Source of the DNA: Candidatus Omnitrophota bacterium
Lineage (GTDB): Bacteria > Omnitrophota > Gorgyraeia > JAUYCX01
Length of the DNA stretch: 64,000 bases
Reading direction: 5' to 3'
Assembly: GCA_030692045.1 (NCBI GenBank)
Contig: JAUYCX010000049.1
Span: 106,643-170,642, forward strand
Part shown: positions 4,190 through 50,097 of the stretch, piece by piece
How the letters are laid out: each line of letters starts with the position of its first letter
Numbering within the stretch: the stretch's first letter is position 1
Translations under genes and position numbers: made by a program
The notes under the pieces: model-generated
The model's input: only the letters and a program-made list of their open reading frames with translations
Told to the model about the DNA's origin: nothing
Databases searched by the model: none

Positions 4190-4207
4190 AGAGGAAGAAG
4201 TATACCT

Positions 4208-7825: not shown

Positions 7826-7835
7826 GCCGCTAAAT

Positions 7836-10390: not shown

Positions 10391-10434
10391 GAAGCTATCT
10401 TTGGCGTAGACTACCAATAGGACATAGTACTATT

Positions 10435-11766: not shown

Positions 11767-11786
11767 CATGTGCGCATAGTTTATTT

Positions 11787-12974: not shown

Positions 12975-12980
12975 AGAATT

Positions 12981-14876: not shown

Positions 14877-14914
14877 AAGATATTGGTTGTAACTTGGCAA
14901 GTATTGGATCTAAT

Positions 14915-16075: not shown

Positions 16076-16102
16076 TTTGGACATGAGTGAGTAGCAGTAT
16101 AA

Positions 16103-17166: not shown

Positions 17167-17208
17167 AAAAAATAAGAAGTAAAATAACAATGTGGATAGT
17201 TGAATATT

Positions 17209-19657: not shown

Positions 19658-19729
19658 TGTTGATATTGTCGGTGTTGTATTCATTTTTTTCATAAGTTCG
19701 CCTGATAGTTGATTTATGGTTCGAATAAT

Positions 19730-24937: not shown

Positions 24938-26335
24938 ATGTATTATCAAGATAGAAGGCGAATACATACTATTTATTTAATTCTAGATATCATTCTAATA
25001 AGCATTTCTTTTTATTTACCTTGTAAAATTAATCCTGATTCAATTCCTCAGAGTTTGGTAGAATTTAAACCCTATTTTTCTGTATTTGCTATCTGGACCC
25101 TTAGTTTAATATTTCTTTTGAATAATTTGCATCTTTATGCAACTGACCGCTCACTAAGCATTTCTAAAGAGTGGGGGCAGGTAGTCAAATGTGTTTTATT
25201 CTCTTCTGTTTTAGCTGCGCTTTTCATTTTCGCGCTTAAGGCAGTTATCTTTTCGCGTTTAGTTTTTATAGAGTCAACATTTTTACTGGCATTAAGCCTT
25301 TCGTCCTTTCGCACAGTAAAAAGAATCTGGGTAAGGTACCTAATTCGAAATGGTTATTCTAATCTTAATATTTTAATTGTAGGTTCTGGTAATACAGGTT
25401 CAGCATTATCTGAAGAAATTCAAAATAATCCATATTTGGGATTAAGAATTGTAGGCTTTCTTGATGATAATAATACGCATAACACTCTTGGTTGTAAAGT
25501 CTTAGGCAAGATTAAGGATTTAGAGGATGTGGTGAAGAAGAATTTTGTTGATGAAATTTATGTAACTATACCTTCAGAGCGCAAGATAACTTCTGAAGTG
25601 CTTCTTCAAGCAATGAAGATGGGTAAGACAGTTAGGGTAGTAGCAGAACGATTTGACCTTCCTTATCAGCAAGTAGGTCTAAATTATATTGGCTTTATAC
25701 CCTTACTGACTTATTTTGAAAAGAACTTACACGGAACAGAGCAAGCTATCAAGCGCTTTTTAGATATTATTGTTTCAGTTATGCTTCTAATATTATTTTT
25801 GCCCTTACTTTTGATTATTGCTTTTTTAATAAAACTCGAAAGTCCAGGATCCGTATTTTATGTTTCAAAACGTAGCGGTAAAAAAGGAAAGATTTTCAAT
25901 TTTTATAAGTTCCGTTCAATGGTCCACGGTGCAGAAAATCATAAAGAAGCTTTACGACATAAATCTGAGGTCAAGGGTCCGATATTTAAAATAAGAAAGG
26001 ACCCGCGCATTACAAGCTTAGGAAGGTTTTTACGAAAATATAGCTTGGATGAGTTGCCTCAGCTAATTAATGTTTTGAAAGGGGATATGAGTTTAGTTGG
26101 TCCCCGGCCATTTCCTGTTGATGAGAGTCAGAAATTAGAAAATAGGCATATGCCAAGATTAAATATTACACCAGGAATAACGGGATTAGCTCAAATTAAA
26201 GGCCGTTCAGATTTATCTTTCCGTAAATGGGCAAAATGGGATTTATGGTATTTTAATCATTGGTCTTTAGGATTGGATTTAAAAATTTTATGGTGGACAC
26301 TACCGGCTGTTTTGAAGGGAAAAGGGGCTTATTGA
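24938..26335 (+). CDS. Polyprenyl-phosphate sugar-1-phosphate transferase (WbaP/EPS-type initiating PGT)
   Basis: 465 aa with N-terminal TM helices and a central Rossmann-like ILIVGSGNTGSAL. The C-terminal Bac_transf domain contains FYKFRSM and DELPQLINVLKGDMSLVGPRP. Confidence 0.9.
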   Translation: MYYQDRRRIHTIYLILDIILISISFYLPCKINPDSIPQSLVEFKPYFSVFAIWTLSLIFLLNNLHLYATDRSLSISKEWGQVVKCVLFSSVLAALFIFALKAVIFSRLVFIESTFLLALSLSSFRTVKRIWVRYLIRNGYSNLNILIVGSGNTGSALSEEIQNNPYLGLRIVGFLDDNNTHNTLGCKVLGKIKDLEDVVKKNFVDEIYVTIPSERKITSEVLLQAMKMGKTVRVVAERFDLPYQQVGLNYIGFIPLLTYFEKNLHGTEQAIKRFLDIIVSVMLLILFLPLLLIIAFLIKLESPGSVFYVSKRSGKKGKIFNFYKFRSMVHGAENHKEALRHKSEVKGPIFKIRKDPRITSLGRFLRKYSLDELPQLINVLKGDMSLVGPRPFPVDESQKLENRHMPRLNITPGITGLAQIKGRSDLSFRKWAKWDLWYFNHWSLGLDLKILWWTLPAVLKGKGAY

Positions 26336-26841
26336 AGATTAGAGTCTCGAAAACAACTGCTGTTATAGCGATATTTATAATTATCTCTGCTTCCTTTGCA
26401 AGACAGGTAATGAATTATATAAAGGCTAACTTTGGCGAGAAAGGCTTCGCGGTTTTGATTGGCTCAGTTTTTATTATTTCTTTTTCATTATTTTTATTTT
26501 TCATTATAAAAAACAGTTTTAATTTTTTAAAAACATTGCTCGAAATATCATTATTATTTCTAGGTTTAATTTTGACTTGGCAAATAAAACTCCCTGAAGA
26601 GAAAATACATATTTTAGAATATGCAGTTTTGGGTTGGTTTTCTTGCAGAGATTTAATTAAGGTGAATTTGAGAACCAAAGGAACTATTTTAGCAAGTGTA
26701 TTTTGCATTGCAATTGGCCTCCTAGATGAGATATTCCAGGCAATTCTGCCATATCGTTTTTTTCAGTTTCGGGATATAGCGTTAAATAGTTTGGGTGGGT
26801 CGTGGGGAGTAATTTTGTATTCTCTTAGGTTAAAAAAGTGA
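26332..26841 (+). CDS. VanZ-like small membrane protein
   Basis: Four hydrophobic helices, and LLDEIFQAILPYRFFQFRDIALNSLGG resembles the VanZ family signature. The start is uncertain. A TTG at 26332 overlaps the upstream stop, while the track start at 26260 would overlap the PGT gene by 76 nt. Confidence 0.5.
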   Translation: MKIRVSKTTAVIAIFIIISASFARQVMNYIKANFGEKGFAVLIGSVFIISFSLFLFFIIKNSFNFLKTLLEISLLFLGLILTWQIKLPEEKIHILEYAVLGWFSCRDLIKVNLRTKGTILASVFCIAIGLLDEIFQAILPYRFFQFRDIALNSLGGSWGVILYSLRLKK

Positions 26842-29966: not shown

Positions 29967-30191
29967 ATGTATGTACTTGGAATTAACTGCGGCCGTCATT
30001 CAACTGCCGCTTTGCTTAAAGATGGAAAGATTATCGGATGTGTAAGTGAAGAGAGATTTAAGAGGATTAAGAATTATTCTGGGTATCCAGATAAAAGTAT
30101 TAAGTATTTATTAGAATATGCAGGTATTAAGCCTTGGCAGTTAGATCTTGCGGCATTAGGCAATTTTCTTATTTCCAAAGAGAGGAGTTAA
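29967..30191 (+). pseudogene. N-terminal remnant of a NodU/CmcH-family carbamoyltransferase
   Basis: This 74-aa ORF begins MYVLGINCGRHSTAALLKDGKIIGCVSEERFKRIKNYSGYP. That is collinear with the first ~65 aa of the full-length carbamoyltransferase at 51912 (MNILGISCFYHDSAACLVRDGEIMGAVQEERFTRKKHDFNFP), after which it terminates. Full-length family members are about 600 aa. Confidence 0.7.
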
Positions 30192-30194
30192 AAA

Positions 30195-31532
30195 TTGTTA
30201 ACCAGAGAAAAAGTTATTTCTGTTATTGGTTTGGGAAAATTAGGTTTATGTATGGCAGCCTGCTTTGCAAGCAAGGGATACACGGTAATTGGTGTAGATA
30301 TCGATGAAATTAAAATTGATAGGGTAAATAAAGGAGTCTGTCCCATTAATGAAACGGGTTTAAGCGAGCTTATAAAAAAGTATAAAAATAGAATTCATGC
30401 CACCTATGATTATAAATTTGCGATTGAAAATTCACAAGTAACATTTATAGTTGTTGCCACACCCAGTAATGAAGATGGCAGTTATTCTAACGCTCAACTG
30501 GAAGCAGCTTGTATTGAAATTGCAGAAGTTTTAAAAAACAAAAGAGGATTTCATGTTATCTCAATTACAAGTACTGTTACGCCAGGTACTTTAGATAAAT
30601 TAGTTAAGCCATTATTTGAAAGGATAACAAATAAAAGATGCGGCAGAGATTTTGGTTTAGCATACAATCCTGAATTTATTGCCTTAGGTAGTGTAATAAA
30701 AGATTTTAGAAATCCTGATTTTATCTTAATTGGTGAATCGGATAAAAAAACCGGAGATGTCCTATCAACACTCTATAGAATCACTTGCGATAATAATCCT
30801 TATTTTGCCAGAATGAATTTTATTAATTCAGAAATTGCAAAATTAGCTCTCAATTGTTATGTGACTATGAAGATAAGTTTTGCTAATACCCTTGCTGAAG
30901 TTTGCGAAAAAGAGCCCGGAGCAAATGTCGATGTTATAACAAAAGCTATAGGCTTTGACAGAAGGATTGGTGAAAAATATTTAAAAGGAGGCTTAGGGTT
31001 TGGAGGCCCGTGTTTTCCTCGGGATAATCGGGCATTTATTGCCTTTGCCAAAGACATAAATTCTCAGGCGGAATTGTCAAAAACAGTTGATAATATAAAC
31101 AAACATCAGCTTGAAAGAATAACATCTTTGATTAAGAAAAAAATAAAAAAAGCAACTAAGGTAAGTATTTTGGGTCTATCCTATAAACCAAATACTGAAA
31201 TTATTGAAGATTCTCAGTCCGTTGATATAGCTTCAATAATAAAAGAATTGGGCGCAGAAGTTTTTGTTTATGACCCTCAAGCTAATTCAATTACTCAACG
31301 AATATATGGAAGCAGGTTTAAATATGCTTTGAGTGCCAAAGAGTGTTTAAAGAATTCTAAGATTTGTCTTATCACTACTGCCTGGGATGAGTTTAAGAAA
31401 ATTAAACCAACAGAATTCGAGAGATTAATGAGAAAGGATGCAATTTTAATTGATTGTTGGAGGTTATACGATAAAAGTAAATTTAAGAAGATTAATTATG
31501 TGTGTTTAGGTTTATTTAATTTGGGAAAGTAA
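30195..31532 (+). CDS. Nucleotide-sugar 6-dehydrogenase (UDP-glucose/GDP-mannose dehydrogenase family)
   Basis: 445 aa. TTG start 7 nt after an AGAGGAG SD. N-terminal VIGLGKLGLCMAACFASKGYTVIGVDID, catalytic-Cys block GLGFGGPCFPRDN, and a C-terminal UDP-binding region ILGLSYKPNT. Confidence 0.85.
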   Translation: MLTREKVISVIGLGKLGLCMAACFASKGYTVIGVDIDEIKIDRVNKGVCPINETGLSELIKKYKNRIHATYDYKFAIENSQVTFIVVATPSNEDGSYSNAQLEAACIEIAEVLKNKRGFHVISITSTVTPGTLDKLVKPLFERITNKRCGRDFGLAYNPEFIALGSVIKDFRNPDFILIGESDKKTGDVLSTLYRITCDNNPYFARMNFINSEIAKLALNCYVTMKISFANTLAEVCEKEPGANVDVITKAIGFDRRIGEKYLKGGLGFGGPCFPRDNRAFIAFAKDINSQAELSKTVDNINKHQLERITSLIKKKIKKATKVSILGLSYKPNTEIIEDSQSVDIASIIKELGAEVFVYDPQANSITQRIYGSRFKYALSAKECLKNSKICLITTAWDEFKKIKPTEFERLMRKDAILIDCWRLYDKSKFKKINYVCLGLFNLGK

Positions 31533-31566: not shown

Positions 31567-32592
31567 ATGGCTTTTGAGATCAGCGGTAAGAGAGTTTTAG
31601 TTACAGGAGGGGCTTCTTTTATTGGCTCTCATTTGGTAGATACATTAATTAAGCGAGGAGTTTCATTCATAAGGGTTGTTGATAATTTAAGTAGCGGGAA
31701 ATTGGAAAACATTATTGAACATATTAATGCAGGCAGAATAGAATTTCACAAAAGAGACCTTTTAGAGCCTGGCCTCGCTGACGAGATGGTTAAAGGTATA
31801 GATATTGTTTTTCATTTGGCAGCTGACCACGGTGGACGCGGTTATGTTGATTTGCACCAGTCAGCTTGTAGCACTAATTTAATTTTGGATGGGATTATGA
31901 TTAAGGCTTCTTACGAAGCAAAGGTGGATAAATTTATATTTGCTTCATCAGGTTGTGTATATCCTAATTTTAAACAAACAAATCCTAAGGAAATATTATA
32001 TCTTACAGAGGATATGGTTGGTCCTCCATATGATGCGGATAATATGTATGGTTGGGCAAAACTTATGGCTGAATTGTCGCTAAAGGCATACTATAAAGAT
32101 TTTGGAATGAAATCTGCTTCATGTCGGTTTTTTACTGTATACGGTGAACGAGGCATTGAAAATCATGCAGTTATAGCTATGATTGCTCGGGCCCTTATTA
32201 AGCAAAATCCTTTTCAAGTCTGGGGAACAGGAGAGCAAATTCGTAATTGGACGCATGTTAGTGACATCGTAAGCGGTATGATATTAGCGGCAGAGAAATT
32301 AGACGATGCGACTGCTATCAATTTGGGAACAATGGAAAGAACCACTGTTATAGAGGCAGTAAAAGAAGTTTTAAGATACACTGGCCACAAAGCGCAGATT
32401 GAATTTCATCCTGAAATGCCCACAGGCCCTTATAACAGGGTAGCAGATAATTCTTTGGCTAAGAGACTTTTGGGGTGGGAGCCGAAAATTAGATTTATGG
32501 ACGGTTTACATAAAACTATTGATTGGTATTTTACTCATAAGAATAAGGAGAAAGTGGCAAAAGAATTAGATGTAATGCTTACAGAAAGGTAG
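31567..32592 (+). CDS. Extended SDR NAD-dependent epimerase/dehydratase
   Basis: KRVLVTGGASFIGSHLVDTL and YGWAKLMAE (YxxxK). Its position next to the sugar dehydrogenase is compatible with a UDP-uronate decarboxylase or epimerase, but the specificity cannot be determined from sequence. Confidence 0.75.
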   Translation: MAFEISGKRVLVTGGASFIGSHLVDTLIKRGVSFIRVVDNLSSGKLENIIEHINAGRIEFHKRDLLEPGLADEMVKGIDIVFHLAADHGGRGYVDLHQSACSTNLILDGIMIKASYEAKVDKFIFASSGCVYPNFKQTNPKEILYLTEDMVGPPYDADNMYGWAKLMAELSLKAYYKDFGMKSASCRFFTVYGERGIENHAVIAMIARALIKQNPFQVWGTGEQIRNWTHVSDIVSGMILAAEKLDDATAINLGTMERTTVIEAVKEVLRYTGHKAQIEFHPEMPTGPYNRVADNSLAKRLLGWEPKIRFMDGLHKTIDWYFTHKNKEKVAKELDVMLTER

Positions 32593-32612: not shown

Positions 32613-33506
32613 GTGAGGTTGTTTATGGGAAGAATTTTTAAATCTTTGTTTCTAATTTTAAGGCCAAAACATTGGATTAAAAATCTTTTTATTTTTGCAG
32701 GACCGTTTTTTTCTCTCAATTTCTTTGTTTATGACAATATCAAAAAGCTTTCTTTGGGATTTATCTGCTGGTGTGGAATTTCCAGCGCAACTTATATTTT
32801 CAATGACATAATTGATAGAAAAGAGGATGCGTTTCATACACTTAAAAAAAGACGACCGATTTCTTCTGGCTTAATAAGCACAAACTTAGCATGGATTGTT
32901 TTTATACTTCTAAGTTTATTTTTCTTTTTAATTGCCTTCTGCATTAAGACCTCTTTTGGGTATCTAATTTTAGCTTATTTTTTAATTAATCTACTCTATT
33001 CATTATATTTAAAGCATGTTTTTATTTTAGATGTGATGTGCATTTCATTTGGTTTTATCTTAAGAGTAATTTCTGGAGCGATGCTGATAAATGTGGGATT
33101 TTCTGAATGGCTTATAATGTGTACCTTACTTCTTTCACTTTTACTTGGTTTTGGCAAGCGTCAAGAAGAGATAACTTCTTTAGAAAAGGTTGCAATGCAT
33201 CACCGTAGAGTTTTAAAAGATTATGACGTGGGTTTTTTGCAGCATATCCCATATGTTTTAGTATCTTCTACAATTGTTTGCTACATGCTTTATACAGTTT
33301 CGCAAGAGGCGGTTAGGAAATTTGGAACTAAAAATCTTATCTATACAACAGTTTTTGTGATTTATGGACTTTTTAGATATGTTTATGTAGTTAATGAAAA
33401 GAAAAAGGGTGCAGATCCAACTCAAATTATATTCCAGGATTTGCCCAGTGTAATAAACATCTTATTATGGATTATGGTTTCAGGGTTTATTATTTACCTA
33501 TTATAA
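32613..33506 (+). CDS. UbiA-superfamily polyprenyl-phosphate phosphoribosyltransferase-like (decaprenyl-phosphate 5-phosphoribosyltransferase family)
   Basis: LRPKHWIKNLFIFAGPFFS, SATYIFNDIIDRKEDAFHTLKKRRPISSG, YLKHVFILDVMCISFGFILRVISGA and GFGKRQEEI are collinear with the mycobacterial Rv3806c-type enzyme as I recall it (RPRQWVKN, NDxxDxxxDxxHPxKxxRP). About 8-9 TM helices. GTG start at 32613 or ATG at 32625. Confidence 0.75.
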   Translation: MRLFMGRIFKSLFLILRPKHWIKNLFIFAGPFFSLNFFVYDNIKKLSLGFICWCGISSATYIFNDIIDRKEDAFHTLKKRRPISSGLISTNLAWIVFILLSLFFFLIAFCIKTSFGYLILAYFLINLLYSLYLKHVFILDVMCISFGFILRVISGAMLINVGFSEWLIMCTLLLSLLLGFGKRQEEITSLEKVAMHHRRVLKDYDVGFLQHIPYVLVSSTIVCYMLYTVSQEAVRKFGTKNLIYTTVFVIYGLFRYVYVVNEKKKGADPTQIIFQDLPSVINILLWIMVSGFIIYLL

Positions 33507-33519
33507 AGGAGAATGAAAA

Positions 33520-34536
33520 ATGAGGATATTAATAACAGGTGTTCCTGGATGGTTAGGCGGGAGATTCTTAGAGATTTTAATTAAGGGGTTTGAAAATGAG
33601 GGCCCTATAAATGATTGGAAGATAAGATGCCTTGCTTTAGACGCCATAGACTTAAGTTTCATAAATAACCTTTCTCAATATAAGAAAATTGAGGTTATTT
33701 TGGGAGATATAACAAAAAAAGATACTTTAAAGAATGCAGTCAAAGATATAGATATAATTTTTCATATTGTGGGAATAATCCATCCTAAAAAAATAAAAGA
33801 ATTGTATCAAGTTAATACATTAGGAACTCTTAATTTAATTTCTGAAGCATTTTATGCAGGGGTTAAGAGATTTATTCATATAAGCAGTAATTCTGTGGCT
33901 GGAACTAATCTTAAGCGTCATATTTTAATGAAAGAAGAGGATGAACCAATGCCCTATTTGAATTATGGGTTAAGCAAATACTATGCAGAGTGCATTGTAA
34001 AAGGTTTTCAAGAATCTGGCAAGATTGAAACAGTGATACTGCGCCCTTGCTGGTTCTATGGGCCCAATCAGCCTAAAAGGCAGACAAAATTTTTTAAAAT
34101 GATTCAAAAAGGAAACCCAATTGTTTTTGGTAATGGATTAAATTTTAGAAGTATGAGTTATGTTGATAATACAATATTAGCAATGATTTTAGCTGTCGAG
34201 ACTAAGGAAGCTGTGGGACAAACCTATTGGATAGCAGACTCTCGTCCATATACTACATTGGAGATATATCAGACCGTTGCTGAGCTTCTTGAGGTAAAAA
34301 ACTTTAAACCCAAATTTCTTCCTAATTTTTCTTCGGAAATTTTTTTAATGGCGGATAAACTCTTTCAGTCATTAGGTATATATCAGACAGAAATCCATGT
34401 TGCTGGAGAGATGAATAAAGATATTGCCTGTAGTATTGATAAGGCACGCTTAGAACTCGGTTACGAACCAAAGATAGAACTAAGAGAAGGGATGCGGCGT
34501 TCCATAGAATGGTGCCGAAAACAAGGATTGTTGTAA
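33520..34536 (+). CDS. Extended SDR NAD-dependent epimerase/dehydratase/reductase
   Basis: MRILITGVPGWLGGRFLEIL and YGLSKYYAE (YxxxK). 338 aa. It starts 13 nt downstream of the UbiA-like gene. Confidence 0.75.
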   Translation: MRILITGVPGWLGGRFLEILIKGFENEGPINDWKIRCLALDAIDLSFINNLSQYKKIEVILGDITKKDTLKNAVKDIDIIFHIVGIIHPKKIKELYQVNTLGTLNLISEAFYAGVKRFIHISSNSVAGTNLKRHILMKEEDEPMPYLNYGLSKYYAECIVKGFQESGKIETVILRPCWFYGPNQPKRQTKFFKMIQKGNPIVFGNGLNFRSMSYVDNTILAMILAVETKEAVGQTYWIADSRPYTTLEIYQTVAELLEVKNFKPKFLPNFSSEIFLMADKLFQSLGIYQTEIHVAGEMNKDIACSIDKARLELGYEPKIELREGMRRSIEWCRKQGLL

Positions 34537-34539
34537 GTA

Positions 34540-35937
34540 ATGAGAATTTTATTAATTGCACCCATAAAAGATAGCTACTCTGGATTAGCTCAATATCCAC
34601 CTGTTGGCTTGGGTTATCTTGCCACTAGCGTTAGAAAATCTGGACATAGCGTAAGGATACTTGATTGCGTTAAAGAACAAATGGATTTTCTTAAATTTGA
34701 ATATTTTATTAAAAATAATAATTTTGATGTTATTGGTATTACAGTTTGGTCGTTATCTTTAAGAGAGGTAAAAAATAGTTTGGAAATAATTAAGAGAAAT
34801 AACCCTAAGGCAATTACGGTTATAGGTGGTCCTCATCCATCAGCTTTACCCGAAGATTCATTAAGATTCTTCAGGGAAGTTGATTTTGGTTTTAAAGGTG
34901 AAGCAGAGATAGGGTTTGCGCGTTTTATTGACCTACTTAACCATGGCGGATGTAATTTTCAAGATATTCCTGGTTTAATCTGGCGTAGTAGAGATAAGGT
35001 TATCTCTAACGCACCTATATGGGCAGATAATTTAGATGAATTAGGATTTCCCAGCTGGGATTTGATTAATCCACGGGATTATTTTATGCCAGGCGCTTTA
35101 GTAAGCAAAGACACAGCTGTGCTTACTTGCACAAGAGGTTGTCCTTATCAATGCACTTTTTGTTCTGCATGGATAACTGCCGGAAGAAAAATAAGGTGCC
35201 GCTCCATAAAACACATACTCAGCGAAATAGAATATCTTAGTTCTAATTTTGGCATTAGAATTTTTGATATTCCCGACGAGAATTTCACTTTTGATAAAAA
35301 ATATGTTATGGATTTTTGTGAAGCGGTTATGCAATATAATGGAAAGTTTGAGTTCTTCTTGCCAAATGGCATTAGGTTAGATTCTTTAAATAGAGAATTA
35401 CTTATTACGATGAGAAAGGCAGGTTTCAGAAGAGAAGTTGCGGTGGGAATTGAATCTGGCTCGGAAAGGGTGCTTAAATTAATGAAGAAAAATCTTTCAC
35501 TTGATAAAGTAAAGGAGAAGATAAAATTACTTAATCAGGCTGGATTTAGGCCAATTGGTTATTTTATTGTGGGTTTTCCCGGAGAGTCGAGAGAGGATTT
35601 AAGAAAAACCTTAAGGTTAGCGCTCAATCTTAAATTATATGCCGCAGCATTTACGCCGTTTGCGCCTATGCCTGGCACAGAGGCAACAGATTATATTCTG
35701 AAAAACAAAGAATTGCCAGAGGATTTTGATTTTACTTCTATAACAACTGATAAGGTTGCCTATGCCCCAGTTGGTATGACAAAACAAGAATTGAATAAGT
35801 TTAGAAAATATGCCCTTCTAAGATTTAATCTTAGACCACGCCCTTTGTTTTATTACCTATCAAATTATAATAGCTTTCGCTTCGCATTTGTAAAATTTTT
35901 GAATTTATTTTTCAAAAACGGACAAGTGGATTCCTAA
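34540..35937 (+). CDS. B12-binding-domain radical SAM protein (paralogue 6)
   Basis: 465 aa. Blocks VIGGPHPSA and FKGEAEIGFARF, linker LDELGFPSWDLI, cluster motif CTRGCPYQCTFCSA. The gap to the upstream SDR gene is 3 nt. Confidence 0.88.
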   Translation: MRILLIAPIKDSYSGLAQYPPVGLGYLATSVRKSGHSVRILDCVKEQMDFLKFEYFIKNNNFDVIGITVWSLSLREVKNSLEIIKRNNPKAITVIGGPHPSALPEDSLRFFREVDFGFKGEAEIGFARFIDLLNHGGCNFQDIPGLIWRSRDKVISNAPIWADNLDELGFPSWDLINPRDYFMPGALVSKDTAVLTCTRGCPYQCTFCSAWITAGRKIRCRSIKHILSEIEYLSSNFGIRIFDIPDENFTFDKKYVMDFCEAVMQYNGKFEFFLPNGIRLDSLNRELLITMRKAGFRREVAVGIESGSERVLKLMKKNLSLDKVKEKIKLLNQAGFRPIGYFIVGFPGESREDLRKTLRLALNLKLYAAAFTPFAPMPGTEATDYILKNKELPEDFDFTSITTDKVAYAPVGMTKQELNKFRKYALLRFNLRPRPLFYYLSNYNSFRFAFVKFLNLFFKNGQVDS

Positions 35938-35942
35938 GAAAA

Positions 35943-37811
35943 TTGAGAAAATTAATGGAAATCAAGAATAAAATTACTCTTGTCTTGGTTTTTATCTTAT
36001 TTTTTGGTTTTCTGCTACGTTTATGGGGTATAGGATTTGGTCTTCCTTATCTATCACATCCTGACGAAACAAGGGTTATTTTAGATACGCTTTCAATGGG
36101 CCATAGATTTAGTTTAATACCCCAGCGTCCGGATTATTCACTGCTTTATAGATATTTGCTTTTAGGATTATATGGTTGTTATTTTGTCGTGGGAAAATTG
36201 CTTGGCATATTTAGAGATTTGAATGATTTTGCATTTAAATTTATGGTTAATCCCACAGCCATCTATATTATTTCACGAATGGTTAGTGTAATCTTCGGAA
36301 CTCTAACTGGACTATTTTCTTATTTATTAGCAAAAAGGTTCTTTGATAAAACAACCGCTTTTGTAACAATGTTATTTGTTCTTTTTGAATTTCAGCTGCT
36401 TCAACATTCACAATGGGCAATATATCCAGCCGTATTTAGCTTTACTACATTGTTAGCTATTTATTCTATGTTTAGAGTTATTAAAGAACCTTCTTTAAAA
36501 AATTTTATTTTGATGGGAGTTTTTAATGGTATTTCGATTTCAACTCAGAATCATGGAATATTTTTACTGCCACCCCTAGCGATAACAGTTTTATTTCATT
36601 TTTTTGATAACAAAAATATTTTAGACAGAAAAGTTTTCTTTAAGAATTATTCTGCTTTAATTTTGAGTTTGGTAATTTTTAGTCTTTTAGGAAATTTTTA
36701 TTGGTTTTTTATCTTTAAAAAAACTTTTCTTAAATACTCTGAACTTATAGGAGTAACTAAGGTTGGCTTTGCCTCGAAGCCGCCTTATGCTAATAATATT
36801 TTCAGTTTGGTTTTTTGGTTTGTTAGTGAGCTTATAAGACAAGATGGGATCTTGGGAATTTTTTTAGTATTAGGTTTAATCTATTCAATAATTAAGCATA
36901 CTAAATTCGATATTGTTTTTTTAGCTTATGTAGTTACCAATTTATTTATATTCTCGGGTTGGGGTTTTAGGTTGCTACATGATATGTTAGGGGTAATGCC
37001 TATAATTTGTGTTTTTGGGGCTCGAGCGCTGGTTGACTTATTAAAAAAAATAAGATTTAAGGAGGCTTCGATAGGCATGGTCGCTTGTTTAATTTCCCTT
37101 CCATTGATATGCGATTCAGTTATTGTTGACATAAAAAAGAACAATCTTGATACAAGGCAACTAACAAAAGATTGGATTGAGCAAAATATTCCCAGTACCC
37201 AAAAGATAGCTATTGATTGGTACGTCTTTAGCGTAGCGTTAAATAGCGACATTCCATTGTATTTTAGAAATCCTGTTGCAAGAAAATATTATGAAGAGAA
37301 TATTCCTGATAAGATAAAAGAGTTATATGTTGATTATCTGAAAAATAAACCTGTTTATGACATAATCGAGATTATGGAATCAAGTGATAAGCCACACTGG
37401 CCTTCTGATATGCCACTTGAAGCCGTGAAAGAAGCTAATAGGCATGCCTTCTATAGAGACATATACAGCAAATTTAATTTTAGGTCTTTAGAATATCTCA
37501 AGAAAGAAAACGTTAAATATATCATTATTTCAAGTTACCTTTATGGCTTCTTTTTGTTAGATTCAGACTATAATAAAAGAGACCTCTTCAATCCCTTTAT
37601 AAAAGATAGGCCTTGGATAAATTTCAGTCAGTCAAACTATTATATAGATGATAAGAGATATGGATTATTATATTTTATAAGTCGAGATGCAAGAAATTTT
37701 TATCTTCCTCTTTTAAAAAATGAGCTTAAAGGCGTAGTCTTGATAAAAGAATTTAAACCGGATAACTGGCATTTAGGACCGATAATTAAAATTTATAAAG
37801 TAACACGATGA
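35943..37811 (+). CDS. GT-C glycosyltransferase, ArnT/PMT-like (GT39/GT83-type)
   Basis: 622 aa. GLPYLSHPDETRVILDTLSM follows the first helix and matches the PDETRY-type acidic loop motif of ArnT-like enzymes. There are about 11-13 TM helices and then a ~220-aa soluble C-terminal domain. TTG start at 35943 or ATG at 35955. Confidence 0.7.
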   Translation: MRKLMEIKNKITLVLVFILFFGFLLRLWGIGFGLPYLSHPDETRVILDTLSMGHRFSLIPQRPDYSLLYRYLLLGLYGCYFVVGKLLGIFRDLNDFAFKFMVNPTAIYIISRMVSVIFGTLTGLFSYLLAKRFFDKTTAFVTMLFVLFEFQLLQHSQWAIYPAVFSFTTLLAIYSMFRVIKEPSLKNFILMGVFNGISISTQNHGIFLLPPLAITVLFHFFDNKNILDRKVFFKNYSALILSLVIFSLLGNFYWFFIFKKTFLKYSELIGVTKVGFASKPPYANNIFSLVFWFVSELIRQDGILGIFLVLGLIYSIIKHTKFDIVFLAYVVTNLFIFSGWGFRLLHDMLGVMPIICVFGARALVDLLKKIRFKEASIGMVACLISLPLICDSVIVDIKKNNLDTRQLTKDWIEQNIPSTQKIAIDWYVFSVALNSDIPLYFRNPVARKYYEENIPDKIKELYVDYLKNKPVYDIIEIMESSDKPHWPSDMPLEAVKEANRHAFYRDIYSKFNFRSLEYLKKENVKYIIISSYLYGFFLLDSDYNKRDLFNPFIKDRPWINFSQSNYYIDDKRYGLLYFISRDARNFYLPLLKNELKGVVLIKEFKPDNWHLGPIIKIYKVTR

Positions 37812-38812
37812 ATCAATCCCCCTTAGTTAGTGTTATCATCACCAATTTTAATGGAATCAAATATTTGAGGAATTGTTTTGAATCGTTATATGCAGGTTCA
37901 TACAAGAATATAGAAATTATTTTTGTAGATAATGGCTCAGCAGATGGTAGTTTGGAATTTGTGCATCAGGCATTTAAAAATATAAAAACAATAGATAATA
38001 AAGACAATTTAGGCTTATCCATCGCCTCCAATAGGGGCGCAGAAATTGCAGATGGTAAATATTTGTTTTTTTATAATAATGATACGATTGCAGATACGGA
38101 TTTAATTAGTAATTTAGTGAAGGCTATGGAAAATGATTCTAAAATAGGTATTGCTGGTTGTAAAACTTATACTTATGATGGGAAGTATTTAATCAATGCT
38201 GGGGTTGCTTGCGATATTTTTGGTTATCCATATGGAAAGGGTAAGCCATTTTATGTGGATGCAGGAATTTTCATAAGAAAAGACTTATTTTATAAAATAG
38301 GCAAGTTTGATGAGAAGATGTTTCTTTATGGAGAAGACAGAGACATTTGTTGGAGGTGTTGGTTGTATGGGTATAAAGTTGCGGTAATTGAGAATGCAAA
38401 ATTTTTACATAACAGTGCCTGTATAACAAGGGATTTAAAGCAGTATCGTACTAATATAAATAAACGCTTTTGGGGAGAGCTTAATTCGTTGCGTTCAATA
38501 TTAAAGAATTATAGCGTTGGATTTATTTTTTTTATTTTATTACTTTTTATGCTGATGAATTTAGTCGAGATATTGGCATTTTTTATCAAAGGAAAATTTA
38601 AAATAATTAAGTATGTTTATATCAAATCTTATATTGAGAATCTAAAAAGCATAGAAGATACTTTAAGAAAAAGAAAAACGATTCAGCAAGAAAGAAGGGT
38701 TTCTGATTTTAAAATAGTCAATCATATGTCAAAAATTAGCGGCAAATTAAAATTATTTCTGGATATGGGGATACCGAAGTTTAGCGAAAATGTAAAATAC
38801 GGTAATGCTTAA
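37808..38812 (+). CDS. GT2 glycosyltransferase
   Basis: VSVIITNFNGIKYLRNCFESL .. EIIFVDNGSADGS .. FFYNNDT .. LYGEDRDICWR, with a C-terminal TM helix. ATGA overlap with the GT-C gene. Confidence 0.85.
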   Translation: MNQSPLVSVIITNFNGIKYLRNCFESLYAGSYKNIEIIFVDNGSADGSLEFVHQAFKNIKTIDNKDNLGLSIASNRGAEIADGKYLFFYNNDTIADTDLISNLVKAMENDSKIGIAGCKTYTYDGKYLINAGVACDIFGYPYGKGKPFYVDAGIFIRKDLFYKIGKFDEKMFLYGEDRDICWRCWLYGYKVAVIENAKFLHNSACITRDLKQYRTNINKRFWGELNSLRSILKNYSVGFIFFILLLFMLMNLVEILAFFIKGKFKIIKYVYIKSYIENLKSIEDTLRKRKTIQQERRVSDFKIVNHMSKISGKLKLFLDMGIPKFSENVKYGNA

Positions 38813-40019
38813 GAATAATTTATCAAAAAATGATGTATTATTATGCGGGCTTGCCTTTACCAGCAGGACAGAAACCTTAGAGGAATACCTTAAAGATAAG
38901 GTAAGGTCGTTGACGGTAGTCGCAATTTCCAGCTGTTTTTTAAAAGAGAATTTAAGTTATTGCCGGGTATATGAAAATGGTATTTTGGCCGATAAATTCA
39001 AGATACCCAATCTTCGAATTAAGGATTATAAATGGTACCGTCAGCCGTTAATTTTGTTAGTGTTTATTATAAACTGGTTATCAATTGCTCTCGTTGTCTT
39101 GAAGCTTAAAAAAAGGTTTGATTTGTGTATAGGCATATCTCATTCTTTTACTTTTATGGGAGTGATATTCAAAAAGTTTAGAATAGTAAGAAAACTCTTA
39201 TATTATTGCATCGATTACTATATACCACAGGACAAGATTAATTTTAATTCCTTATTTGTGAGGATGATAAATTTTATAGAACGCTTTATAGTAAAGAATT
39301 CAGATTACGTATGGGATATTTCTCCAAACATTGCTGAATACAGGGCAAAAGTTGGCGGAGTTAAAAAATTCTCTTATAAAAATATGATTGTCCCTTTAGG
39401 ATATGCAAGTCATTTAAAGAGGTTCGAGTCTATAGAAAATATTAACCGTTGGGATATAGGTTTTGTCGGTACCATTACTGTCAGCCAAGGATTACAGCTT
39501 TTAATAGAGTCATTACCGGATATTGTGAAGGAATTTCCTTTGGTTAGAGTAAAAATTATTGGAGATGGCCCTTTTTTAAAAGAATTGAAAGCAAATGTTC
39601 ATCAAAGAGGATTGAAGGATTATTTTAATTTTCTTGGTTTTATAAAAGAAGAAAAAAAGATGCTTGATATACTTTCTAAGTGTGCAATTGGAGTAGCGCT
39701 GTGGAATCATTCAATTGACGATAAGAATATTATTTGTGCCGATCCTGGTAAAACTAAATTATATGCTTTGTGTGGATTGCCGATGATTGTAACTAAAGTT
39801 GCCTCTATTGCTGATGAGGTTAAAAGGCGAAAAGCGGGATTAGTTATTGAGTATGATCTTAAAGCATTGATTGAGGCATTCGATTATTTATTAAAGAGTG
39901 ATGAGACTCTACGTTTATATAGAGAGAATGCTGCATCCCTTGGTAGGAAATACACATCAGAGCATATCTTTGATTGCGCATTTAAAGAAGCATTTAATAT
40001 TTTTAACATTTTAGAATAA
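38805..40019 (+). CDS. GT-B fold glycosyltransferase (GT4-like)
   Basis: 404 aa. GFVGTITVSQGLQLLIESLPDIV..VRVKIIGDGP and ADPGKTKLYALCGLPMIVTK resemble the GT4 C-terminal domain. The N-terminal half is divergent and includes a hydrophobic segment. Confidence 0.6.
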   Translation: MLKNNLSKNDVLLCGLAFTSRTETLEEYLKDKVRSLTVVAISSCFLKENLSYCRVYENGILADKFKIPNLRIKDYKWYRQPLILLVFIINWLSIALVVLKLKKRFDLCIGISHSFTFMGVIFKKFRIVRKLLYYCIDYYIPQDKINFNSLFVRMINFIERFIVKNSDYVWDISPNIAEYRAKVGGVKKFSYKNMIVPLGYASHLKRFESIENINRWDIGFVGTITVSQGLQLLIESLPDIVKEFPLVRVKIIGDGPFLKELKANVHQRGLKDYFNFLGFIKEEKKMLDILSKCAIGVALWNHSIDDKNIICADPGKTKLYALCGLPMIVTKVASIADEVKRRKAGLVIEYDLKALIEAFDYLLKSDETLRLYRENAASLGRKYTSEHIFDCAFKEAFNIFNILE

Positions 40020-41686: not shown

Positions 41687-43600
41687 ATGTGTGGAATTTG
41701 TGGATTTATAGGTTTTAAAGACGAAAAGCTTCTTAAGGAGATGACAGATACAATTTCCCATCGTGGTTTGGATGATGAGGGATATTATTCAACGGATGAG
41801 ATAAATTTAGGTTTTAGGCGTCTAAGTATTATAGATTTAAAAGGTGGTAATCAACCTCTTTGTAATGAAGAAAAAAGTATTTGGAGTGTTTGCAATGGTG
41901 AAATATATAATTTTAAAGAAATAAAAGAAGAACTGATTAAATATGGTCATATTTTTAATACTGATACAGACACAGAAATTTTACCACATTGTTATGAACA
42001 GTGGGGGATAGATTTTGTAACTCGAATTAATGGTATGTTTGCTTTTGCTCTTTGGGATGGAAATATAAAGAAATTATTTTTAGTGAGAGATAGATTAGGC
42101 ATAAGGCCTTTGCATTATACATTTGATGACAGAAAGTTGGTGTTTGCTTCTGAAGTGAAGGCAATTTTGAAATACGATAATTTTAGAAAAGAATTAGACT
42201 ATAATGCTATAGATGATTTTTTAACTTTTCGTTATATCCCTGGAGATGTGACATTCTTTAAAAATATAAAGATTTTAGAACCGGCACATATATTAATTTA
42301 TCATAACGGTGCAATTGATATTAAGAAATACTGGGATATTACGATGGAAGAAGACTTTAGTATTCAAAGACAAGAATACATTCAGCGCTTTTCTTCTCTG
42401 TTGGATTCTTCTGTAAAAAGATGTCTTTTAAGTGATGTGCCTTTGGGTGTTTATTTAAGCGGAGGATTAGATTCTTCTGTGATAGCAGGCCTTGTAAAAA
42501 AGAATTATGGAGAAGATTTGGTAGTTTTTTCTCATGGATTTGATGGAGAGGAAGATGAGTTAAGATTTGCTAGAAAAGTTGCCAAATTCTTAAATGCAAA
42601 AAATTATGAAATATTTATCGAGGAGAAACATTTAGAGTTATTGCCTGATATTATCTATCATTTGGATATGCCAATTGCCAATTCTGATATTATCGGATTT
42701 TTTCTTTTGGCAGGATTAGCGCAAAAACATGTCAAGGTTATCCTTACAGGAGAAGGTTCCGATGAATTATTCGGTAGTTACGTACATCAAGAGATGCTTT
42801 ATTATGGATACAAGTTAAAGCGGTTGTTGCCTAAAAATGTGATTAAAAATGTATTACCTTGGTTTATTAAGCAAAGCCCTTTATGGTTAATAAATAAATT
42901 CTTTCGATATCCAGGATATTCTTTAGATAATGAGTCGCGTCTTAAGTTATTAGATTATTTCGAATCTTCAAATTTGGCTTCAGACTATTTCTGTATAAAT
43001 TCTCTTTTTAATCAGAGGCAGAAAGAAAGTTTATATTCAGATGATTTTAAAAATAAAGTGAAATATTCTAACTCTCCAGCAAAAAAAGTTTTGCAAGATA
43101 TACTTTACGATGAAAACATAAAACATATTTTTAACCGCTTAATTTATCTTGAATTTAAATATTGGCTGCCTACTTATCATTTGATGAAAGAAGATAAGAT
43201 TGCCATGTCATTTTGCTTAGAATCTCGTTATCCCTATTTAGACCATGAGATTGTTGAATTTATGGGAAGTCTGCCTGTTAGTTTAAAGAAAAAGGGTCTG
43301 AAGAGAAAATATCTCTTAAGAAAGATATCAAAAAATTTGGTGCCGGAAGAGATTAGAAATCGGCCAAAAGGACCCATACTGGTTCCTATTAATAAATGCT
43401 TTGACAAATCTTTTGAGCAAAAGTTAAGAGAATTATTTACGCCTGAAAAAGTAAAAAAAAGAGGAATTTTTCATTATGAATATTTAAAAAATCTAATCAA
43501 TAATCGAAAACAAAATCCTTTTTTATATGATCGGCAATTATTCGCATTACTTACTTTGGAAATTTGGTTTAATCTTTTTGTAGACAAAAATGGAAGATAA
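41687..43600 (+). CDS. Asparagine synthase-family glutamine amidotransferase (AsnB-like, copy 2)
   Basis: 637 aa. MCGICGF supplies the Cys2 nucleophile and YLSGGLDSSVIA is the PP-loop. The ATG directly abuts the upstream stop. Confidence 0.9.
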   Translation: MCGICGFIGFKDEKLLKEMTDTISHRGLDDEGYYSTDEINLGFRRLSIIDLKGGNQPLCNEEKSIWSVCNGEIYNFKEIKEELIKYGHIFNTDTDTEILPHCYEQWGIDFVTRINGMFAFALWDGNIKKLFLVRDRLGIRPLHYTFDDRKLVFASEVKAILKYDNFRKELDYNAIDDFLTFRYIPGDVTFFKNIKILEPAHILIYHNGAIDIKKYWDITMEEDFSIQRQEYIQRFSSLLDSSVKRCLLSDVPLGVYLSGGLDSSVIAGLVKKNYGEDLVVFSHGFDGEEDELRFARKVAKFLNAKNYEIFIEEKHLELLPDIIYHLDMPIANSDIIGFFLLAGLAQKHVKVILTGEGSDELFGSYVHQEMLYYGYKLKRLLPKNVIKNVLPWFIKQSPLWLINKFFRYPGYSLDNESRLKLLDYFESSNLASDYFCINSLFNQRQKESLYSDDFKNKVKYSNSPAKKVLQDILYDENIKHIFNRLIYLEFKYWLPTYHLMKEDKIAMSFCLESRYPYLDHEIVEFMGSLPVSLKKKGLKRKYLLRKISKNLVPEEIRNRPKGPILVPINKCFDKSFEQKLRELFTPEKVKKRGIFHYEYLKNLINNRKQNPFLYDRQLFALLTLEIWFNLFVDKNGR

Positions 43601-44654
43601 TTTCTGGAAGAATAAAAAAGTTTTAATAACCGGCGGAACGGGATTTTTGGGAAAACATCTTGCAGATGCCTTGTTAAAAAAAGATGCCATTTTACGTATT
43701 TTAGATTTTCGTAAACCTGTTGAAGAAATTAAAGGAATTGAATTTTTTGAAGCTGATATTAGAGATAAGAATAAGATAAATGAACTTTGTAGGGGCTCTG
43801 ACCTAATATTTCATTTGGCTGCTATGCCCTCAATTGCAAAGGGAAAATTTAAACAGTATTATGAGGTTAATGTTTTGGGAACCAACAATATTCTTGAAGG
43901 TGCACATAATTATGGAATAAAAAAGGTCGTACATGTATCAAGCAGCACAGTTTATGGTATGCCTCGTGAGTTTCCTTTAAAAGAAACCAGCCCTACACAA
44001 CCGCTGGGAAAATATAGCAGCACTAAATTAGAAGCAGAACGACTTTGCAATGAGTTTATGAATAAAGGAATAAGTATCTCAATTATTCGCCCACGGGTTA
44101 TTATCGGTCCTGGGCGTATCGGCATTTTTAGTATTCTGTTTGAGCGTATCATAAACAACAAGCCAGTGTATATTTTGGGGAAAGGGGATAATGTATTTCA
44201 GTTTACGAATGTATTTGATATGGCATCGGCATGTATTAAAGCAGCAGAATATGAAAAATCAGATTTATTCAATATTGGCTGCGAGGAAGTTTCGCCTGTT
44301 AAAGAAGAATTGAAAGGTTTGATAAGTTATGCAAAAAGTAGTTCGCAAATTATTTCTCTTCCAGCAAACTTGACAAAGGCAGGTCTTTGGGCACTATCTT
44401 TTCTTGGTATGTCTCCTTTGGTAGAGGAACAATTTATGATTGCGGATAAAAATTTTAAACTCGACACAACATACGCAAAAGAGAAATTGGACTGGTTTCC
44501 GATATATAGTAATTTGGATTCGTTAATTCAGGCATATGATTGGTATGCAAAGAATGAAAATTTAGCATCGAGACAGTATAAAAGTTTATTTAGCGTGCTG
44601 GGAAAATTTAGGCATAGCCACTTGGGCGGTTTTCAAAATCAAAAACGTGGATAA
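43590..44654 (+). CDS. Extended SDR NAD-dependent epimerase/dehydratase (3beta-HSD-like)
   Basis: KKVLITGGTGFLGKHLADALL and YSSTKLEAE (YxxxK). 354 aa. Overlaps the upstream gene by 11 nt. Confidence 0.75.
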   Translation: MEDNFWKNKKVLITGGTGFLGKHLADALLKKDAILRILDFRKPVEEIKGIEFFEADIRDKNKINELCRGSDLIFHLAAMPSIAKGKFKQYYEVNVLGTNNILEGAHNYGIKKVVHVSSSTVYGMPREFPLKETSPTQPLGKYSSTKLEAERLCNEFMNKGISISIIRPRVIIGPGRIGIFSILFERIINNKPVYILGKGDNVFQFTNVFDMASACIKAAEYEKSDLFNIGCEEVSPVKEELKGLISYAKSSSQIISLPANLTKAGLWALSFLGMSPLVEEQFMIADKNFKLDTTYAKEKLDWFPIYSNLDSLIQAYDWYAKNENLASRQYKSLFSVLGKFRHSHLGGFQNQKRG

Positions 44655-45438: not shown

Positions 45439-46136
45439 ATATTCTTGTTTCGATATTTAGATTAAGTGCATATCTTCATTCATCATTTTTTTATAAACGA
45501 AAGGTCGCTTCTATTTTAGGACATAGTCTTAAAGAAATAAATTTAATTTATAAAGAGGTTAGCAGTTCGCAGTGGTTCAAGGAAATTGCCCAAAAAAAGA
45601 ATATTAAGCAAGGGCTTTTTGATTTCAGTATGTTATCTCCCTTGAGGGCACAAACATTATATGTTCTTTGTAGGATAGCGAAGCCAGAAATAGTGGTTGA
45701 GACAGGCGTTTCTGAAGGTTTTTCTTCAACTTTTATTCTGCAGGCGTTAGAGAAAAATAATAAAGGTCATCTTTATTCCATAGATTTGCCTAATCAGCCA
45801 GGACAAAAGTTGCCAGAGAATAAGACAACCGGTTGGCTTATTCCCGAAGACCTTAAGAAAAGATGGATGCTTATCTTAGGTTCATCACGAGAGAAACTGT
45901 CTGCGCTTTTAAATGATTTAAAAAATATCGATATTTTCTTTCATGATAGCGACCACAGTTATGAAAATATGATGTTTGAATTTGAATCAGCTAAATCATA
46001 TCTTAAAAGTGGAGGGTTTTTACTTTCTGATGATATCACTGACAATAATTCCTTCAGGGATTTTTGTAACTTTAACAAATGCAATTATGTAAGATTATTT
46101 AAGTTGGGTATAATAAAAAAGATTAGCATTTTATGA
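45426..46136 (+). CDS. Class I SAM-dependent methyltransferase (Methyltransf_24/CmcI-like, tentative)
   Basis: IVVETGVSEGFSSTFILQAL .. LYSIDL .. IFFHDSDHSYENM resembles the CmcI/O-methyltransferase-type fold. 236 aa. Confidence 0.6.
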   Translation: MQKMNILVSIFRLSAYLHSSFFYKRKVASILGHSLKEINLIYKEVSSSQWFKEIAQKKNIKQGLFDFSMLSPLRAQTLYVLCRIAKPEIVVETGVSEGFSSTFILQALEKNNKGHLYSIDLPNQPGQKLPENKTTGWLIPEDLKKRWMLILGSSREKLSALLNDLKNIDIFFHDSDHSYENMMFEFESAKSYLKSGGFLLSDDITDNNSFRDFCNFNKCNYVRLFKLGIIKKISIL

Positions 46137-50092: not shown

Positions 50093-50097
50093 AAAAT

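Follow-up and report, generated by a model that had tools for sequence, protein, structure and literature searches.

Work in Citrobacter youngae has established a widespread pathway that adds pentofuranose side chains (Kelly et al., PNAS 2024; PMC11127046). In this bacterium a UbiA-like polyprenyl-phosphate phosphoribosyltransferase (PPPRS) with a phosphatase domain converts phosphoribosyl pyrophosphate (PRPP) to undecaprenyl-phospho-ribofuranose (undP-Ribf), which is exported by a MATE or SMR flippase before a glycosyltransferase of the GT-C fold (family GT136) adds the pentose in the periplasm. The corresponding O1/O2 genes are ORF15 (PPPRS fused to a phosphatase, PRP), ORF14 (MATE flippase), ORF12 (GT-C/GT136) and ORF13, an epimerase of the short-chain dehydrogenase/reductase (SDR) family; genetics and nuclear magnetic resonance of the glycan showed that in O2 this single cytoplasmic SDR is needed for a xylofuranose (Xylf) instead of a Ribf side chain, and the authors assigned it the epimerisation of undP-Ribf, while systems adding arabinofuranose (Araf) are accompanied by DprE1/E2 homologues (PMC11127046). 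Here we compare with these systems a cassette of four genes from a 64-kb window, by which we mean the whole stretch of DNA analysed, a very large lipopolysaccharide/O-antigen-type surface-glycan locus that is probably from an Omnitrophota bacterium. The cassette encodes a UbiA-family phosphoribosyltransferase, an extended SDR, a B12-binding radical S-adenosylmethionine (SAM) enzyme and a GT-C-fold transferase. We consider it reasonably probable that two functional units are interleaved in this operon-like stretch, a pentofuranose side-chain system and a radical SAM enzyme belonging to another tailoring set. What the analysis shows is to which families the proteins belong, which motifs are conserved and how the genes are arranged in this and other loci; from these we infer the chemical steps, the final pentose and the radical SAM substrate.

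An earlier description of this DNA, hereafter the sequence-only reading, had reported four co-directional genes with spacers of 13, 3 and 5 nt and had quoted several of their motifs, and the open reading frame (ORF) coordinates (32613-33506, 33520-34536, 34540-35937 and 35943-37811, all on the + strand) and translations agree with it. The spacers depend on the ORF starts chosen: a separate gene call, made on a public contig of identical sequence (L001), begins the UbiA gene four codons later (ATG at 32625) and the GT-C gene also four codons later (ATG at 35955), which lengthens the last spacer to 17 nt.

The first gene (32613-33506, + strand, 297 aa, GTG start with the ATG alternative at 32625) encodes a polyprenyl-phosphate 5-phosphoribosyltransferase (PPPRS/DPPRS) of the UbiA superfamily with multiple transmembrane (TM) segments, and it is a stand-alone enzyme with no fused phosphatase/HAD domain. 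It matches PF01040 and the NCBIfam model NF008977, ‘decaprenyl-phosphate phosphoribosyltransferase’, at 267 bits against a cutoff of 234, and the next prenyltransferase models outside the phosphoribosyltransferases (UbiA-, CyoE- and ChlG-type) score at most 50 bits. Its only sequence matches in the PDB are the Mycobacterium tuberculosis (Mtb) DPPRS structures 8j8j/8j8k (E 5e-31), with aa 14-292 aligning to Mtb residues 19-297. The motifs RPKHWIKN (aa 17-24) and NDIIDRKEDAFHTLKKRRP (aa 64-82) are present, and both the loop II pattern N-D-x2-D-x3-D (N64, D65, D68, D72) and the loop IV pattern R-x2-E (R183, E186) are intact and aligned with the Mtb residues; mutagenesis in ORF15 and Mtb DPPRS has shown the residues of both loops to be required for activity (PMC11127046). 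Judged by its sequence, 32613 is a polyprenyl-phosphate phosphoribosyltransferase of the Rv3806c type, as the sequence-only reading had it, and not a quinone or haem prenyltransferase.

Directly downstream lies the first of two SDRs relevant here, which we call type A (33520-34536, + strand, 338 aa; Pfam 3Beta_HSD/Epimerase). It carries GVPGWLG at aa 7-13 (GxxGxxG) and YGLSK at aa 149-153 (YxxxK), and its best sequence matches in the PDB are UDP-sugar 4-epimerases and dTDP-glucose 4,6-dehydratases. The Asp-Glu pair expected beside the catalytic Ser/Thr of 4,6-dehydratases was not found when this region (‘ISSNSVAG’) was inspected by eye. We propose that the enzyme acts as an epimerase or oxidoreductase on polyprenyl-phospho-ribofuranose.

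The comparison of loci supports a partnership of this SDR with the UbiA enzyme. Among the many orthologues of the type-A SDR at 55-83% identity, a UbiA gene stands directly upstream in L162, L163-165, L166, L167 and the P0227 locus, the last with the order UbiA-SDR-SDR, while in L167 the pair lies amid housekeeping genes (miaA, hflX, clpB, hrcA-grpE-dnaK) with no adjacent radical SAM or GT-C gene. One exception, L168, has the type-A SDR after an 11-TM protein and before a different radical SAM paralogue. A search of annotated plasmids with 33520 ranked rhizobial NAD(P)-dependent oxidoreductases far ahead of all other matches (39-43% identity, 99% coverage, E 1e-64 to 2e-70). The genes of these proteins, which align with 33520 over their full length (E 4e-85), stand directly downstream of UbiA in Rhizobium sp. 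CCGE531, S. fredii NGR234 and, by coordinates, two Mesorhizobium plasmids; in L171, from Mesorhizobium sp. AR07, the annotation has an IS21 element upstream of the SDR and no UbiA. The CCGE531 UbiA protein is HAD-fused and about 480 aa long, and this replicon (CP032687.1) has been named as a candidate three-component system (SI Fig. S12 of PMC11127046). In CCGE531 and NGR234 the type-A SDR is directly followed by a 658-aa protein without a Pfam match, apparently hydrophobic in its N-terminal part, as judged without computed hydropathy, and the adjacent operon encodes an SMR transporter, a GMC oxidoreductase and a second SDR. The type-A SDR is thus a conserved partner of the UbiA phosphoribosyltransferase in Omnitrophota and on rhizobial symbiosis plasmids, so the part of the sequence-only reading that associates the adjacent SDR with the phosphoribosyltransferase is supported, and since the two occur without an adjacent radical SAM gene, the SDR has a role that does not depend on one.

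A second extended SDR of the window, type B (43590-44654, + strand), lies outside the cassette and is possibly an auxiliary enzyme of the same pentose pathway. Its homologue in L167 (41% identity) lies directly upstream of UbiA, and others occur in the rhizobial modules L170, L171 and L180, in L170 (13398-14444, - strand) and L171 at 32-33% identity and within the SMR-transporter operon. A further homologue on a haloarchaeal plasmid (L176, 5341-6432, - strand; 32% identity, E 1e-61) adjoins a DPPRS, a PHP phosphoesterase and a PMT-type GT-C. Type B accompanies type A in the rhizobial modules and in L167 and occurs without it in the haloarchaeon; two SDR families therefore recur with the UbiA-type phosphoribosyltransferase. 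The two could form an oxidation/reduction pair or catalyse two epimerisations, which might lead, for example, to a lyxofuranose donor; to our knowledge, lyxofuranose has never been reported in a glycan. The L167 type-B gene (7054-8081) is split into ORFs of 97 and 245 aa, by a frameshift or a sequencing error.

The last gene of the cassette (35943-37811, + strand, 622 aa, TTG start with the ATG alternative at 35955) encodes a transferase of the PMT_2/GT39-like type. The Pfam models PMT_2 (44.7 bits) and PMT (37.1 bits) both exceed their cutoffs, and the motif PDETR lies at aa 40-44, with its D-E after TM1. The AlphaFold2 (AF2) model is of high confidence (pLDDT 93.5, pTM 0.92), and ranks 1-42 of a Foldseek search with it are all GT-C enzymes (STT3, AglB, ALG9/12, ArnT, Pmt4, DPY19, PglB, AftA and Emb), at TM-scores of about 0.4-0.57 and with no single closest family. 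On the strength of the Pfam matches and this model 35943 is a GT-C-fold enzyme, as the sequence-only reading had it. The gene adjoins the UbiA-SDR(-radical SAM) cassette in L162 and L163-165 and is separated from it by a single GDSL gene in L166, and GT39/PMT-type GT-Cs adjoin DPPRS genes in Chondrinema, Legionella and Halostagnicola, in three other phyla, as well as in the archaeal locus L021. We propose, as the most parsimonious pairing, that 35943 is a periplasmic transferase using a polyprenyl-phospho-pentofuranose donor.

The cassette shares with the C. youngae system a UbiA-family phosphoribosyltransferase whose catalytic motifs are the same, a GT-C-fold transferase, the position of both inside an O-antigen-type locus, and a cytoplasmic SDR with GxxGxxG and YxxxK in place of DprE1/DprE2, ORF13 being compared by description only. 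It differs in that its PPPRS lacks the fused HAD phosphatase (PRP) domain and in having a second SDR type and a B12-binding radical SAM gene between SDR and GT-C. The rhizobial module resembles it in the order UbiA, type-A SDR, large 658-aa protein and in the presence of a type-B SDR, but has an N-terminal HAD domain on UbiA, includes in addition a GMC oxidoreductase and an SMR transporter and contains no radical SAM gene. That the 658-aa protein may be a GT-C is suggested by analogy with the description of such loci by Kelly et al.; the window GT-C has no detectable BLAST similarity to this polytopic partner. The mycobacterial decaprenyl-phospho-arabinose (DPA) pathway (Rv3806c, Rv3807c, DprE1, DprE2, Emb/Aft) begins with a committed enzyme homologous over its full length to 32613 and, like the pilin Araf system of Pseudomonas aeruginosa PA7, ends with a GT-C that uses a lipid-linked pentofuranose outside the cytoplasm. 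Unlike that pathway, the window has extended SDRs instead of DprE1, DprE2 and a PAP2 phosphatase: Pfam and NCBIfam profile scans, which covered all ORFs of at least 150 aa in the 64 kb, revealed no DprE1-type FAD_binding_4/ALO flavoenzyme and no DprE2-type classical adh_short SDR (~250 aa), in agreement with the sequence-only reading, and no PAP2 or PHP phosphatase was found in the window. A canonical DprE1/E2-type neighbourhood also exists outside Actinobacteria, in Chondrinema (L175).

The pentofuranose unit would consist of UbiA 32613, SDR 33520, GT-C 35943 and possibly SDR 43590, and would work in the manner described by Kelly et al. The UbiA-family enzyme would move ribose-5-phosphate from PRPP onto polyprenyl phosphate, the 5-phosphate would be removed by a putative phosphatase, possibly encoded elsewhere, and one or both NAD-dependent extended SDRs would invert one ring hydroxyl via a keto intermediate to give a Xylf-, Araf- or other pentofuranosyl donor. 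Once the lipid donor had been flipped to the periplasmic side of the membrane, the GT-C would transfer its pentofuranose to the glycan there. The other unit would be the B12-binding radical SAM enzyme 34540, which we group with the surrounding GT2, GT4, UDP-glucose 6-dehydrogenase (UGDH) and methyltransferase genes and which most likely tailors another sugar of the same glycan, probably as a C-methyltransferase, instead of serving as a dedicated modifying enzyme for the lipid-linked pentose.

The radical SAM enzyme itself (34540-35937, + strand, 465 aa) matches PF02310 (B12-binding, 68 bits) and PF04055 (Radical_SAM, 100 bits) and contains CPYQCTFC at aa 201-208, which gives it the predicted architecture of the cobalamin-dependent (class B) radical SAM enzymes. 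Curated NCBIfam models (BchE, ApyD, P-methylases, MgmA, HpnJ/R, AprD4) all score far under their cutoffs, the AprD4 model NF033070 reaching 97 bits, where the cutoff is 500, over aa 143-387 only. The nearest structures to the AF2 model (pLDDT 91) are MgmA/QCMT (9CCB), AprD4 (6FD2), TsrM, CysS, OxsB and TokK, with which it shares an N-terminal Rossmann-like B12-binding-type domain and a CxxxCxxC barrel (Foldseek E 1e-18 to 4e-25, TM-scores 0.63-0.77, sequence identity 15-23%). The best TM-score is that to AprD4 (0.76/0.78), a likeness that is not specific to the AprD4 family. AprD4 is a sugar diol-dehydratase of apramycin biosynthesis that works with a partner ketoreductase, AprD3, and its own domain is related to the B12-binding type but does not bind cobalamin. 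Because AprD4 shares the fold without cobalamin, the fold alone is no proof that 34540 binds it, and because 34540 resembles methylases (MgmA, TsrM, TokK, CysS) as well as OxsB and AprD4, the fold cannot decide between methylation and other chemistry.

The gene neighbourhoods of the radical SAM subfamily are more informative. The subfamily comprises more than 100 clusters at 41-80% identity. Collection scans seeded with 34540 returned mostly paralogues at no more than 43% identity and were dominated by the generic CxxxCxxC pattern, the useful loci being L082 and L002, and the phage and viral collections searched contained no relevant loci. In the closest relatives the order UbiA-SDR-radical SAM-GT-C is kept, in L162 (radical SAM 80% identical) and L163-165 (70%) without interruption and in L166 (66%) with a GDSL gene between the radical SAM gene and the GT-C, and these loci are syntenic with the window from the UGDH through the methyltransferases. 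Leaving aside the DPANN archaeal loci of paralogues considered below, co-occurrence of the radical SAM enzyme with UbiA is confined to homologues of at least 66% identity. Neither UbiA nor a type-A SDR lies near any of the seven homologues at 43-58% identity, for six of which 10 kb were inspected; the seventh, P0018 (58%), is on a 3.6-kb contig, on which only the immediate neighbours, a FAD amine-oxidase-type protein and another radical SAM enzyme, were examined.

These seven loci have other companions. L082 (53%) encodes methyltransferases and a GT4, L174 from Elusimicrobiota (45%) methyltransferases and GT4s, L173 from Acidobacteria (48%) a UGDH, SDRs, DegT, a GT-C homologue and a GT4, and L083 (43%) other radical SAM paralogues and AsnB, while the orders are radical SAM-GT2-GT2-NTP-transferase-SDR-EamA-UGDH in L172, from a complete Omnitrophota genome (CP070797.1; 50%), and GT2-radical SAM-UGDH-SDR-GT4-methyltransferase-radical SAM-methyltransferase-methyltransferase in L002 from Planctomycetales (43%). 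Homologues of the window's own GT2, GT4, UGDH and/or methyltransferase genes are present in five of the seven (L082, L172, L173, L174 and L002): those of the GT2 (37808-38812, + strand) adjoin the radical SAM gene in L172 (53%) and L002 (47%), those of the GT4 (38805-40019, + strand) occur in L002 (45%), L173 (39%), L082 (38%) and L174 (37%), those of the UGDH (30195-31532, + strand; TIGR03026, 360 bits) in L172 (53%), L002 (52%) and L173 (39%), and the companion methyltransferases are homologues of 40029, 44647 and 45426. The UGDH and the extended SDR directly upstream of UbiA (31567-32592, + strand) are companions more often of the radical SAM subfamily than of UbiA.

In L172 the genes form a compact seven-gene cluster (10001-16891) with unrelated flanking genes, which may be the minimal functional context of the radical SAM subfamily. 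The content of this cluster recalls an Arn-type lipid-linked pentose branch from UDP-glucuronic acid (UDP-GlcA), and its GT2 has no ArnC-type match.

Approached from the other side, none of nine UbiA phosphoribosyltransferase loci sampled independently of the radical SAM enzyme (L167, the P0227 locus, L170, L180 and L175-L179) has a B12-binding radical SAM gene adjoining the cassette. In L167 an unrelated one (25% identity) occurs upstream at a distance of about 7 kb, with unrelated genes between, and L179, from Burkholderia multivorans, encodes a HAD-UbiA fusion and no SDR resembling those of the window. Taken together, the comparative evidence more probably ties 34540 to the neighbouring GT2/GT4/UGDH/methyltransferase set than to the pentose pathway.

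Several observations weigh against separating the two units, and they are best considered with the rival explanations to which they belong. The sequence-only reading had proposed that the radical SAM enzyme acts directly on the polyprenyl-phospho-pentofuranose before transfer by the GT-C. This could take the form of C-methylation or of an AprD4-like 1,2-diol dehydration of the 2',3'-diol of ribose, followed by ketoreduction by the SDR to a deoxy-pentofuranose, and in its favour the gene is wedged between SDR and GT-C with spacers of 3-17 nt, so short as to suggest co-translation. It also stays between them in all four related loci that keep the cassette, and in L166 the UbiA-SDR-radical SAM block is contiguous despite GDSL genes inserted on either side. 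Two DPANN archaeal loci, L003 (7031-16323) and L021 (9833-14930), again combine a B12-binding radical SAM enzyme (39% and 29-31% identity) with a UbiA phosphoribosyltransferase (36%), DUF362 and a candidate GT-C, which is a PTPS_related membrane protein in L003 and of the PMT_2 type in L021; L003 further includes a PHP phosphoesterase, absent from L021, and a flavin amine oxidase. Two short contigs may pair a type-A SDR (81% and 67%) with a radical SAM enzyme at 50-51% identity, as suggested by matching the lengths of the longest contigs across three protein searches, which likewise suggested contigs of 714469, 126302 and 23864 nt with the SDR and the GT-C and no radical SAM gene; this proxy misses known co-occurrences (the window, L162 and L163) and is weak evidence only. 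The best TM-score of the model, to a sugar diol-dehydratase, would fit the dehydration version, but the AprD4 family model falls far short of its cutoff, as noted above. Co-conservation of the radical SAM gene with the UbiA/GT-C pair, which had been set beforehand as the test of this idea, breaks down outside one narrow syntenic clade (66-80% identity): the subfamily members at 43-58% lack nearby UbiA and type-A SDR genes, and UbiA and the type-A SDR occur without an adjacent radical SAM gene in L167, the P0227 locus and the rhizobial plasmids. Just two of about 160 loci of radical SAM paralogues examined contain UbiA, namely L003 and L021, the sole co-occurrence found outside the window's clade. 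Moreover, eight of the approximately 53 window genes encode B12-binding radical SAM enzymes, so that such a neighbour is unsurprising for any given gene (about 15% per slot). Direct action on the lipid-linked pentose therefore seems quite unlikely to us. Were it true, what the GT-C transfers would be a branched or deoxy pentofuranose, and the case would be the first in which a radical SAM enzyme modifies a lipid-linked glycosyl donor, with the two DPANN loci as a second instance.

The composition of the pentofuranose unit can also be questioned. No phosphatase and no SMR, MATE or GtrA flippase adjoins the cassette, and the GT-C might serve another lipid-linked sugar, made with the translationally coupled GT2 37808 or with a GtrB/ArnC-type synthase such as 16103 and perhaps derived from UDP-GlcA via the UGDH and SDR 31567, in which case the UbiA-SDR product would be consumed by one of the polytopic proteins at 50041-51915, 19709-21001 or 7800-8891. 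The stop codon of the GT-C gene overlaps the start of the GT2 gene (ATGA, 37808-37811), the window holds the full-length PgfS/ArnC-like 16103 besides those three polytopic proteins, L167 has the UbiA-SDR pair with no GT-C nearby, and in the Acidobacteria locus L173 a 34% homologue of the GT-C stands without UbiA in an Arn-like gene set with a GT2, two DegT aminotransferases, SDRs, a UGDH and the radical SAM homologue. In L163 the homologues of GT-C and GT2 form a single ORF of 977 aa (4031-6964). The fusion may be real or an assembly artefact, the latter being possible since L164, whose radical SAM protein is identical to that of L163, has the GT-C as a separate ORF of 647 aa. Given the GT-C homologue without UbiA and the fusion, the donor of 35943 is not proven. 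Nevertheless, we rejected GT2 37808 as a polyprenyl-phosphate-sugar synthase for the GT-C, as hidden Markov model and PDB sequence searches gave no full-length ArnC-, GtrB- or DPMS-type match for it, whereas 16103 has one. The GT-C moreover stays near UbiA-SDR in all four syntenic loci, and in other phyla DPPRS genes usually stand beside GT-Cs of the PMT/GT39 type, so we regard a different donor for the GT-C as unlikely. A more radical alternative, that the product of UbiA and SDR is an isoprenoid lipid or envelope cofactor, phosphoribosylated or modified in some other way, and that the two genes lie in a glycan locus incidentally, would accommodate the L167 pair among housekeeping genes with no glycosyltransferase nearby and the better conservation of the type-A SDR (55-83%) than of UbiA (40-66%) or the GT-C. 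We consider it very improbable, because the phosphoribosyltransferase motifs and the profile placement point to PRPP chemistry, homologues adjoin GT-C-annotated or polytopic proteins in rhizobia, Bacteroidota, Legionella and haloarchaea, with an SMR flippase too in rhizobia, and every characterised UbiA-type phosphoribosyltransferase makes a glycan donor (PMC11127046).

If a pentofuranose system and a separate radical SAM tailoring gene do coexist here, the pathway that makes lipid-linked pentofuranoses from PRPP by way of SDR epimerases reaches Omnitrophota, an uncultivated and little-studied phylum, and a stand-alone PPPRS pairs with PMT/GT39-type GT-Cs and two recurrent SDR families, which would help annotation. 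The concept repeats one published in 2024: a DprE1-independent route, which the sequence-only reading had regarded as new, is plausible in the window, but SDR-based conversion of polyprenyl-phospho-ribofuranose was already described by Kelly et al. (PMC11127046). The more interesting question is the role of eight B12-binding radical SAM enzymes in a glycan locus, the one in the cassette included. They are encoded at 1140-2678, 2675-4189, 4950-6377, 6374-7825, 17200-18615, 34540-35937, 46133-47611 and 47599-49059, all on the + strand, and share pairwise identities of just 23-35%; a SPASM radical SAM gene follows at 49052-50092 (+ strand). Our literature searches found no description of B12-binding radical SAM tailoring of bacterial surface polysaccharides or O-antigen clusters, and those pairing radical SAM enzymes with DPPRS returned nothing relevant. 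Several B12-binding radical SAM genes per locus are also present in related loci of Omnitrophota, Planctomycetota and Elusimicrobiota.

The window as a whole is AT-rich (~33% G+C), with all substantial ORFs on the + strand and GT9 heptosyltransferases at both ends. It encodes a Wzx-like flippase, two Wzy-like proteins, one initiating phosphoglycosyltransferase, many GT2 and GT4 enzymes, five extended SDRs, the UGDH, two AsnB-type amidotransferases, carbamoyltransferases and six SAM methyltransferases. Its sole HAD protein (62438-63037) lies 29 kb from the cassette beside heptose-type genes. The flippase, of the Wzx/MOP type with a weak MATE match, is at 10435-11766, 22 kb upstream of the cassette, and no SMR-, EamA- or GtrA-like small membrane protein was found in the window, whose only small 4-TM ORFs are the VanZ-like 26260-26841 and the SxtJ-family 53726-54145. 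The latter was considered as a flippase and rejected, being an SxtJ-family partner of the adjacent carbamoyltransferase.

Besides the full-length PgfS/ArnC-like polyprenyl-phosphate-sugar synthase (16103-17065, + strand, 256/162 bits) there is an AglJ/PpgS-like one (4208-4969, + strand), and the three polytopic membrane proteins named above, all encoded on the + strand, have no significant Pfam match, 7800-8891 giving only a weak, sub-threshold one to PMT. These additional synthases and polytopic proteins may mean that several separate periplasmic glycosylation branches operate in the locus. Just upstream of the UGDH, a 74-aa ORF (29967-30191) corresponds to an N-terminal carbamoyltransferase fragment and looks like a gene remnant, L162 having a full-length 590-aa carbamoyltransferase at the matching position; an intact paralogue is encoded in the window at 51912-53729, followed by the SxtJ-family gene.

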